20,586 nucleotides of DNA, taken from positions 1 through 20,586 of the IMG/VR virus record IMGVR_UViG_2563366976_000012, one strand, 5' to 3'. The stretch comes from a virus. Taxonomy: Duplodnaviria; Heunggongvirae; Uroviricota; Caudoviricetes. Under the pieces are notes generated by a model that did not search any database, had not been told where the DNA came from, and saw only the letters and a program-made list of their open reading frames with translations. Of this stretch, positions 8,232-9,173 are shown in pieces. Numbering within the stretch: position 1 is the stretch's first letter; every line of letters starts with the position of its first letter. Made by a program: the position numbers and the translations under genes.

Positions 8232-9173
8232 TCACCCCCTGAATCCTTCCGGGATCTGGCTGTAGTCCACGTTGTCGTAACTGGCTTTGAAGTACGGGTC
8301 TTCACGTTTTTCTGTGTGCGTGCTGACGGACGGCGATAAGCGCAGGGAAAGCTCATCCCATTTTTCCCGCAACTTCGACGGGCTGAGCACGTTACGGCAC
8401 CAGAACGGATCACGGCTGACGCGGCTGTACATCTCGCAGATTTGTTTGTGAGTACGACCATCCTGCACACACATCAGGCGAATTTCGTTTGCCCATGCTG
8501 TCCAGTTCGGTTCTTTGGGACGAACCACCTCGCCGTCACATTCGGCGGCCTGCTCGTACAGGGCGATGATTTTTTTCCAGAGCCACTGTGCGCAGGTCAA
8601 ATCATCCTGCGTTCCCCACTGGCGCTTTTTAGGGCTGAATACAACCGCATCAGGATGGCGAGTTAAAAAATCCTGTTCAGCCGTCTGCGTGTCCGGTTGC
8701 AAAGCGTCCGGACGAGAAGGTTTTTTATCTGACGGATCATGTTTTGATTTTACTGACGGATCCCCGCCAGATTCTGACGGGTGAAAACACGCTTTTTTGC
8801 CAGATTTCGACGCATCAAATTTTGACGGGTCAGATTTTGATGCGTCAGATTTTGACGGGTCAGAATCTGACAGTTGAGAAAATGCCGCAGCCTGAAGCTT
8901 CGCAACGTTAAGCTGATAAACATTCGACGCATTGCGGTTACCCTGGCGACGCGCCTTACGCGTTAACCAGCCTTCTGCTTCCAGCCGTGCGATAGCCGTT
9001 CTGACGGTACTCATCCCCGCGCCAATCTGGCGGGCAATGGTTTCAATTGATGGCCAGCACACACCCTCGTCATTACTGAAATCAGCCAGACGGGCCATAA
9101 TTGCCACACTGGATAATTTCATGCCTGACGCTGCGCAACCATCCCATACATAGCCGGTTAATTTGGTGCTCAC
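8232..9173 (-). CDS. Replication initiator-like protein (N-terminal HTH; internal iteron-encoded DPSKSDASKS repeats)
   Basis: 313 aa; GTG start with AAGGAGG 7 nt upstream and GTGA overlap with the Rha gene stop. N-terminal HTH (LSSVAIMARLADFSNDEGVCWPSIETIARQIGAGMSTVRTAIARLEAEGWL); the central low-complexity repeat coincides with DNA direct repeats. Confidence 0.6.
   Translation of the reverse strand: MSTKLTGYVWDGCAASGMKLSSVAIMARLADFSNDEGVCWPSIETIARQIGAGMSTVRTAIARLEAEGWLTRKARRQGNRNASNVYQLNVAKLQAAAFSQLSDSDPSKSDASKSDPSKFDASKSGKKACFHPSESGGDPSVKSKHDPSDKKPSRPDALQPDTQTAEQDFLTRHPDAVVFSPKKRQWGTQDDLTCAQWLWKKIIALYEQAAECDGEVVRPKEPNWTAWANEIRLMCVQDGRTHKQICEMYSRVSRDPFWCRNVLSPSKLREKWDELSLRLSPSVSTHTEKREDPYFKASYDNVDYSQIPEGFRG
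8726..8878. repeat. Iteron-like direct-repeat array (candidate replication origin) inside the initiator gene
   Basis: Eight copies of a TGACGG-type core (variants TGATGC, CGACGC, TGACAG); the last five are spaced exactly 15 bp apart (cores at 8808, 8823, 8838, 8853, 8868) with unit approximately cagattttgacgggt. Confidence 0.6.

Follow-up and report, generated by a model that had tools for sequence, protein, structure and literature searches.

The stretch of DNA described here (the window, 20,586 nucleotides) comprises positions 1 to 20,586 of IMG/VR virus record IMGVR_UViG_2563366976_000012, a member of the Caudoviricetes. On its minus strand lies a gene for a replication initiator of the SfIV/SfII type, and within the coding sequence of this gene is an array of 15-base-pair (bp) repeats. 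A sequence-only reading of the window had described these as iterons placed inside the initiator gene, as in phage lambda, and had remarked that the gene is not followed by a helicase loader. The gene and the features within it are as follows.

8232-9173, minus strand: replication initiator gene, SfIV/SfII type, 313 amino acids (aa), GTG start.
8880-9173, minus strand: N-terminal winged-helix DNA-binding domain (aa 1-98), with Pfam HTH_36 at aa 23-70 (E 4e-11).
8796-8875, minus strand: five exactly phased 15-bp iterons, each a core TCAAAATCTGAC followed by 3 variable bp.
8764-8780: sixth, isolated iteron-like site CCGTCAGAATCTGGCGG, a 17-bp near-palindrome that follows the phased array after a 15-bp spacer.
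8706-8786, minus strand: 81-bp element whose DNA is conserved across all relatives irrespective of iteron type (alignment of 10 initiator genes).
8719-8762, minus strand: two GATC-bearing repeats GATCCGTCAG, 24 bp apart, with an A-rich tract after each.
8334-8693, minus strand: C-terminal domain (aa 161-280), homologue of the lambda O C-domain (BLASTP, AlphaFold2 model).
8235-8276, minus strand: C-terminal tail DNVDYSQIPEGFRG, resembling the C-terminus of DnaT, a candidate motif by which the host machinery for helicase loading would be recruited.

The initiator is 100% identical to WP_001555118.1, a RefSeq 'helix-turn-helix domain-containing protein' in a prophage of E. coli AR_0013, and its gene corresponds, at full length, to the truncated yfdO gene of CPS-53, a prophage of E. 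coli K-12. The DNA is 97-98% identical to genes labelled 'replication protein', 'primosomal protein' or 'O' in Shigella phages SfIV and SfII and in several Escherichia phages, and at least 80% of the gene was found in 1576 of 5426 complete E. coli genomes. SfIV, which is annotated with the same replication module, has been isolated and characterised as a phage (PMC3851460). The K-12 copy, beside yfdN, matches positions 1-709 of the query only (window 8232-8940); the first ~77 codons of the DNA-binding domain are missing from it, and the region that is discussed below as an origin is kept entire.

That the gene encodes a replication initiator, as proposed earlier, is borne out by its domains. 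The whole protein (residues 1-313) aligns with positions 1-298 of the profile PHROG 391 ('replication initiation O-like', E 1.3e-134), the N-terminal part carries HTH_36, and BLASTP pairs residues 130-276 with residues 139-270 of lambda O at 36% identity across 149 aa (E 3e-25). By tblastn the protein also matches lambda (E 9e-18), phi80 gene 15 and the O proteins of Shiga toxin (Stx) phages. No BLASTP match was obtained to the N-domain of lambda O. Seven families came out of the Pfam scan (E<=0.01), and no phage O-protein family was among them; they are HTH_36, a further four families of helix-turn-helix regulators, and DnaD_N and RP-C as weak hits. An AlphaFold2 model built with 40 homologues is confident over aa 1-98, where it shows a helix-turn-helix plus a beta wing, and again over a helical C-domain at aa 161-280 (pLDDT 86-96). 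Between these two folded domains the model falls below pLDDT 50 (aa 101-159), a predicted disordered linker, and it is inside this linker that the repeats fall (gene nucleotides 304-455, aa 102-152). Foldseek comparison of the N-domain with the PDB retrieves dimeric winged helices of the MarR/ArsR type, and this domain is the presumed reader of the iterons.

The five phased repeats lie where the sequence-only reading placed them. Tandem Repeats Finder reports an array at 8801-8864 with a period of 15 (4.3 copies, 81% matches, score 86) and, because the 15-bp units alternate, also with a period of 30 (2.1 copies, 88% matches, score 100). A second repeat search gives starts at 8801, 8816, 8831 and 8846, with spacings of 15, 15 and 15, and a looser copy at 8753. 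On the coding (minus) strand the register of the unit is TCAAAATCTGAC+NNN, and the five units read TCAGATTCTGACCCG (8870-8856), TCAAAATCTGACGCA (8855-8841), TCAAAATCTGACCCG (8840-8826), TCAAAATTTGATGCG (8825-8811) and TCGAAATCTGGCAAA (8810-8796). Together with the G that precedes it, the core forms a 13-bp near-palindrome, GTCAaAATCTGAC. Three looser copies, at 8719-8782, had been described as lying upstream; they are present, but upstream only in plus-strand coordinates, since in the direction of the gene they are downstream of the phased array. All eight repeats are inside the gene (8232-9173, minus strand), and the linker-coding DNA accordingly holds at least three dyad-symmetric direct repeats: five phased, one palindromic (the sixth site, at 8764-8780) and two that bear GATC. 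The sixth site is matched on both strands, is part of inverted repeats I1 and I2, and is kept in all relatives examined.

This concentration of repeats is not a chance product. The pattern CCGTCARAATCTG, with two or fewer mismatches allowed, has 10 matches in the 20.6-kb window, eight of them within 8764-8873; the chance expectation for the whole window is 0.89, and none of 100 shuffles reaches 10. Within 8000-9400 no repeat array outside 8719-8875 was reported by the tools, and window-wide Tandem Repeats Finder lists elsewhere only four minor two-copy rows. A two-copy 15-bp tandem repeat, TTCGGCTTCGGAGGT, occurs at 13088-13117 in the early-left region (score 46). The repeat region translates as ...SDSDPSKSDASKSDPSKFDASKSGKKACFHPSESGGDPSVKSKHDPSDKKP..., in agreement with the low-complexity linker of DPSKSDASKS type that had been read from the letters.

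The number of units varies among related prophages. Five are present in 73 of 80 loci whose N-domains are 99-100% identical, and the remainder have 3, 4, 6 or 7, the differences being in 15-bp steps; across protein clusters the count, made by eye, runs from 0 to ~9. In-frame deletion variants (P0015, P0017, P0029 and P0033) have lost all of the phased units, or all but one, through recombination between the first and sixth copy, and keep the GATC element. One of these, P0033, is found on 128 contigs, in Salmonella.

The 81-bp element overlaps the end of the repeat region and contains both the 17-bp palindrome site (8764-8780) and the two GATC-bearing repeats. Its consensus is CCAGAATCTGGnnnnGATCCGTCAGTAAAwTCAAAACnnGATCCrTCAGATAAAAAACCT. 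Residues that are identical between relatives share their codon at a rate of 0.89 in the element and 0.40 in the N-domain; nucleotide identity is 0.80 and 0.66, respectively. The two copies of GATCCGTCAG are at 8762-8753 and 8738-8729, and their GATC tetranucleotides (8735-8738 and 8759-8762) are invariant in all relatives, at a distance of 24 bp in most. In phiP27 the GATC-bearing repeats, two full copies and a partial third, all read GATCCGCAAG instead of GATCCGTCAG. The choice of codons for Asp-Pro is absolute in both directions: GAT-CCN in 21 of 21 cases within the 81-bp element and GAC-CCN in 15 of 15 within the phased array (p 2e-10). By this measure GATC is evidently selected in the element and avoided in the array. 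GATC clusters in or near the unwinding region are a feature of oriC and P1 oriR, and conserved GATC pairs are typical of such regulated origins. Conservation of the pair here, together with the avoidance of GATC among the iterons, is suggestive of regulation by Dam or SeqA.

A search for the adjacent AT-rich unwinding element that the sequence-only reading had proposed to look for gave no strong one. The least stable 40 bp of the gene do fall here (8714-8754, dG -48.3), but the minimum is modest, at ~62% A+T and a z-score of 1.8. No DnaA box of the form TTWTNCACA occurs in 7700-9700, where the two one-mismatch sites both lie away from the repeats, and there are no convincing IHF sites around the repeats. 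Plasmid-type loading assisted by DnaA is unsupported, as no convincing DnaA box is near the repeats. By analogy with oriC and P1 oriR, 8719-8762 is a probable unwinding or helicase-entry region and a probable target of Dam or SeqA.

That the repeats are under constraint as DNA is indicated by codon comparison of the window gene with its counterparts in phiNP, Flotzy, Klebsiella phage 1 LV-2017 and YeP3. Over the N-domain the proteins are identical at 0.75-0.89 of residues, and only 0.31-0.54 of those residues keep the same codon. Over the repeat region amino-acid identity drops to 0.58-0.81 and codon identity at identical residues rises to 0.80-0.95, a difference from the N-domain with Fisher p values of 8e-4 to 5e-8 per pair. 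Conservation inside the 15-mer does not follow codon position. Information content is 1.3-1.7 bits at the third-codon positions (3, 6 and 9) and 0.4-1.1 bits in the variable triplet, and the least conserved positions are those of the triplet that codes for P, A, T or G, at codon positions 1-2. This pattern is the reverse of selection on a peptide, and the DPSKS/DASKS linker is largely a by-product of the DNA motif. The region offers a clean example of selection on DNA prevailing over selection on protein inside a coding sequence.

The repeats also covary with the type of N-domain, and do so independently of the C-domain, as seen across six N-domain and three C-domain classes. Where the N-domain of the window is joined to a C-domain like that of lambda O (the window itself and Klebsiella phage 1 LV-2017), TCAAAATCTGAC repeats stand at gene nucleotides ~300-380; where the same N-domain is joined to a Phg_2220_C domain (Flotzy, YeP3 and phiNP), they are again TCAAAATCTGAC and again at ~300-380. 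In Flotzy and YeP3 it is the C-terminal part that Phg_2220_C replaces. The reverse exchange is seen in mEp460_4F5, which shares the C-domain of the window (95.8% DNA identity over 8232-8731), has another N-domain, and carries repeats of 23-24 bp. SfV and Stx2a_1447 have repeats of 21-24 bp. In phiP27, with a more diverged N-domain and a C-terminal part of a third type, the repeats are again 15 bp with a related core, at nucleotides 351-399. More distant N-domains of the same family keep the 15-bp period and the position in the gene, with the consensus shifted to CCGTCAAATATTGAC (P0112), GTCCAGAAACTGAAC (P0095) or GTTCAGAATCTGAAC (P0084).

Breakpoints between mosaic relatives fall at the edges of the repeat region (8731 and 8706). 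The stretch in common with mEp460_4F5 ends at 8731, and Flotzy, phiNP and YeP3 share the N-domain and the repeat region, changing to a Phg_2220_C C-domain just past ~8706. Breakpoints at origins are to be expected, because iterons must travel with their binding domain.

Since the repeats are non-random, the initiator is identified, the synonymous sites are conserved, the repeats covary with the N-domain and the position matches that in lambda gene O, the segment 8706-8875 (minus strand) is most likely the replication origin of this lambdoid prophage of the SfIV/SfII/CPS-53 type, lying in the part of the initiator gene that codes for the disordered linker. The comparison with relatives agrees with what the sequence-only reading had put forward: the repeats are conserved and phased, and the protein was not found to be a regulator unrelated to replication.

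Several observations nevertheless weigh against an origin at this place. Conservation of synonymous sites shows a constraint at the level of nucleic acid and not origin function as such, and the AT-rich element is weak, with ~62% A+T and a z-score of only 1.8. A centre-to-centre spacing of 15 bp is tight for dimers of winged-helix proteins. Variants with no phased unit or a single one occur on many contigs (P0017 and P0015, and P0033 with its 128), and so, unless those prophages are defective in replication, the phased array is not strictly required. A description of the origin was not found in the literature searched, including for origins of yfdO/CPS-53; the SfIV genome paper (PMC3851460) mentions the replication module but neither origin nor iterons, and a paper on the 'Eru' replication regions of Stx phages covers neither the SfIV/SfII-type module nor iterons.

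Other explanations of the conserved DNA fit parts of these data. The repeats might be a feature of the protein only, a low-complexity linker rich in Ser, Asp and Lys and produced by slippage, the DNA having no function of its own. The predicted disorder of the region accords with this, as do the shifts of copy number by 5 aa among close relatives, which is what slippage would give. It is hardly credible all the same, as amino-acid identity is below that of the N-domain while codon identity is far above it (0.80-0.95 vs 0.33-0.54), third-codon positions are among the best kept and the most variable are codon positions 1-2 of one triplet, and the repeats change with the type of DNA-binding domain. 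The comparative tests do less to separate an origin from a set of sites bound by the initiator itself, or by another regulator, for some purpose other than initiation, with the true origin elsewhere. Autoregulation or attenuation of rightward transcription, copy control or handcuffing, incompatibility, and exclusion of related phages are candidate roles of this kind, and all of them jointly are unlikely. What was demonstrated by comparison is DNA constraint and covariation rather than origin firing, and the weak AT-rich element and the variants without a phased array could be cited in favour of such roles. Against them stands the point-for-point agreement with lambda (position, dyad-symmetric repeats, and a conserved, less stable element downstream), together with the lack of any other repeat array within 8000-9400 or of more than the four minor two-copy rows elsewhere. 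The conserved GATC pair, as a typical property of regulated origins, points the same way.

The mosaic breakpoints raise a further possibility, namely that the conserved DNA, chiefly the 81-bp element, serves as a recombination 'linker' for the exchange of N- and C-terminal initiator modules. Breakpoints do occur here, with mEp460_4F5 common only over 8232-8731 and another C-domain in Flotzy, phiNP and YeP3, and yet these would be expected of an origin anyway, for the reason given above. The element is ~80% identical and not near-identical, its differences are at particular positions and its synonymous sites are fixed. Neither the absolute choice between GAT and GAC (21/21 vs 15/15) nor the consistent use of GATCCGCAAG in place of GATCCGTCAG in phiP27 would be explained, and a role as linker is quite improbable.

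If 8706-8875 is the origin, initiation might proceed as follows. Dimers of the N-domain would bind the near-palindromic iterons, that is the five phased units and the isolated sixth site, and so build a nucleoprotein complex resembling the O-some. This complex would stress the adjacent 81-bp element, which includes the least stable stretch of the gene. Because the element has two invariant GATC sites, Dam methylation or SeqA probably modulates firing through them. The initiator itself would then bring host DnaB-DnaC, through its C-domain of the lambda O type and its DnaT-like tail.

The last of these steps concerns the absence of a partner gene. Two genes that follow the initiator are relevant.

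7741-8235, minus strand: PerC/YfdN-like gene, in the place of lambda P, with PF06069 at aa 100-151 (E 6e-9).
7088-7741, minus strand: phage N6-adenine (Dam-type) methyltransferase gene (PF05869, E 1e-45; RefSeq annotation of the identical region).

That a PerC-like gene and no loader of the DnaC/P type follows the initiator had been noted earlier, and it holds for the entire window, in which no P, DnaC or DnaB gene was found. The PerC/YfdN-like product belongs to PHROG 1324 ('transcriptional activator') and is not a helicase loader. Its gene as a substitute for P is ruled out, as other tail-bearing modules with a solitary initiator do not have it. The phage Dam gene is two genes downstream of the initiator. 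The remaining order on the minus strand is as follows: before the initiator come cI (divergent), cro, a cII/YmfL-like gene and two Rha/Ash genes, and after it the PerC/YfdN-like gene and the Dam methylase are followed by a LexA-like gene, RusA, KilA-N and DUF968. The two genes directly upstream (9170-10051 and 10048-10887, minus strand) are tandem paralogous Ash+Rha regulators; the AR_0013 prophage, otherwise identical, has a single Rha gene there.

The suggestion that helicase recruitment may differ from that in lambda holds, and the C-terminal tail is the candidate route. The initiator ends in ...VDYSQIPEGFRG (SQIPEGFRG) and DnaT in ...VSEPDSQIPPGFRG (SQIPPGFRG). DnaT translated from E. coli BW25113 has the C-terminus ...NTVSEPDSQIPPGFRG, with the conserved part ...SEPDSQIPPGFRG, and DnaT orthologues show almost no variation in this tail, IP[PR]GFRG. 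Many initiator homologues end in ...ISEPDTEIPPGFRG, in the longer form ...NHISEPDTEIPPGFRG, and the tail is present on initiators with three unrelated C-domains. The likeness is limited to the last 9-14 residues. DnaT orthologues have PF17948, for the three-helix bundle with which DnaT binds single-stranded DNA, and no DnaT-domain family was detected in the initiator by the Pfam scan (E<=0.01) or NCBIfam; scans of the C-terminal part with NCBIfam and Pfam for DnaT or other replication domains gave only HTH families. Sequence searches of the PDB, made with the tail peptide as well as the full protein, retrieved only winged helices of the MarR type and no structure of DnaT or of an initiator. 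The resemblance to DnaT probably explains the label 'primosomal protein I' that these genes bear in phage records.

Tail and loader gene exclude each other to a large extent. A loader or helicase gene adjoins the initiator in none of 11 tail-bearing modules and in five of six that are tail-less (p ~1e-3). The tail-less close homologues P0042, P0114 and P0107, looked up as a test of prediction, each have a lambda P gene (PF06992) immediately after them. On the strength of these patterns we tentatively suggest that the tail of solitary initiators, [SE]PD..IPxGFRG, could be a functional mimic of the DnaT tail that replaces lambda P, contacting the partner of the DnaT tail (PriA, or DnaC/DnaB) and getting DnaB loaded. 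Recent capture of host dnaT DNA is ruled out as the source of the tail, since the nucleotide sequences are only 65-78% identical and differ at many synonymous sites. The last four codons, GGA TTC AGR GGG, are the same in the phage genes and in dnaT; in the window (8232-8246, minus strand) they stand just ahead of the start of the translationally coupled next gene, as they do at the dnaT-dnaC junction. They may double as a ribosome-binding site for that gene, and the association of tail or P could partly reflect co-inheritance of neighbouring DNA; both points qualify the proposed mimicry. A primosome cryo-electron microscopy preprint and a DnaT crystal-structure paper give no partner for DnaT residues 154-179, and a literature search for the motif PPGFRG/IPEGFRG found nothing relevant. 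Recruitment of the helicase through the tail is a lead and not a result.

As an origin of the ordinary lambdoid type, the iteron array would be an expected feature of such a prophage. The unusual part is an initiator that has no helicase-loader partner and ends in a DnaT-like tail. The assignment places the origin of a very common family of E. coli and Shigella prophages, which includes the serotype-converting phages SfII and SfIV and the cryptic K-12 prophage CPS-53, at a defined site of 170 bp. Knowledge of this site is useful for annotation, for replicons derived from phages and for explaining where mosaic breakpoints fall. Two aspects are worth following: the conserved pair of GATC sites, and the occurrence of either a DnaT-like tail or a P gene. 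The latter provides a testable answer to how an initiator like lambda O works without P, and may illuminate an unsolved step, the handing of DnaB-DnaC by DnaT to a restart site; if the proposal is true, the DnaT tail would be the missing contact in replication restart.

Among known systems the closest is lambda ori within gene O. In both, the origin is inside the initiator gene right after the DNA-binding domain, with iterons at nucleotides 349-433 in lambda and 304-455 in the window; several dyad-symmetric iterons precede, along the direction of transcription, an element of lower stability; the C-domains are homologous (36%, E 3e-25); and iterons travel with the N-domain in mosaics. The window differs in its N-domain, a winged helix of the HTH_36 family, and in its iterons, which are 15 bp in strict tandem (5+1+2), compared with four 18-bp sites spaced 20-24 bp apart in lambda. 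Its AT-rich part has only ~62% A+T, a value measured in the window alone. The window also has the conserved GATC pair and no P gene, and its protein bears a DnaT-like tail that is lacking in lambda O. Stx phages of the 933W type resemble the window in having lambdoid origins whose iteron number differs between related phages (six in 933W-type phages vs four in lambda, PMC7466680). They retain the lambda-type N-domain and the P gene, neither of which is in the module of the window.

Iteron plasmids and P1 oriR are similar in having a Rep protein that binds to direct repeats and depends on the DnaB-DnaC of the host. They are unlike the window in having their iterons outside the rep gene and DnaA boxes in the origin, the window having no DnaA box. 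The similarity to E. coli DnaT (primosomal protein I) is confined to the extreme C-terminus, with none outside the tail. Weigel and Seitz (2006) reportedly distinguished a category of 'initiator-solo' phage replication modules. Members such as SfV and SfIV share with the window a single initiator gene, a predicted internal origin and the lack of an adjacent helicase or loader gene. No proposed mechanism of helicase delivery for these modules was found in the literature searched; the dichotomy between tail and P seen with the window initiator and its relatives offers one.

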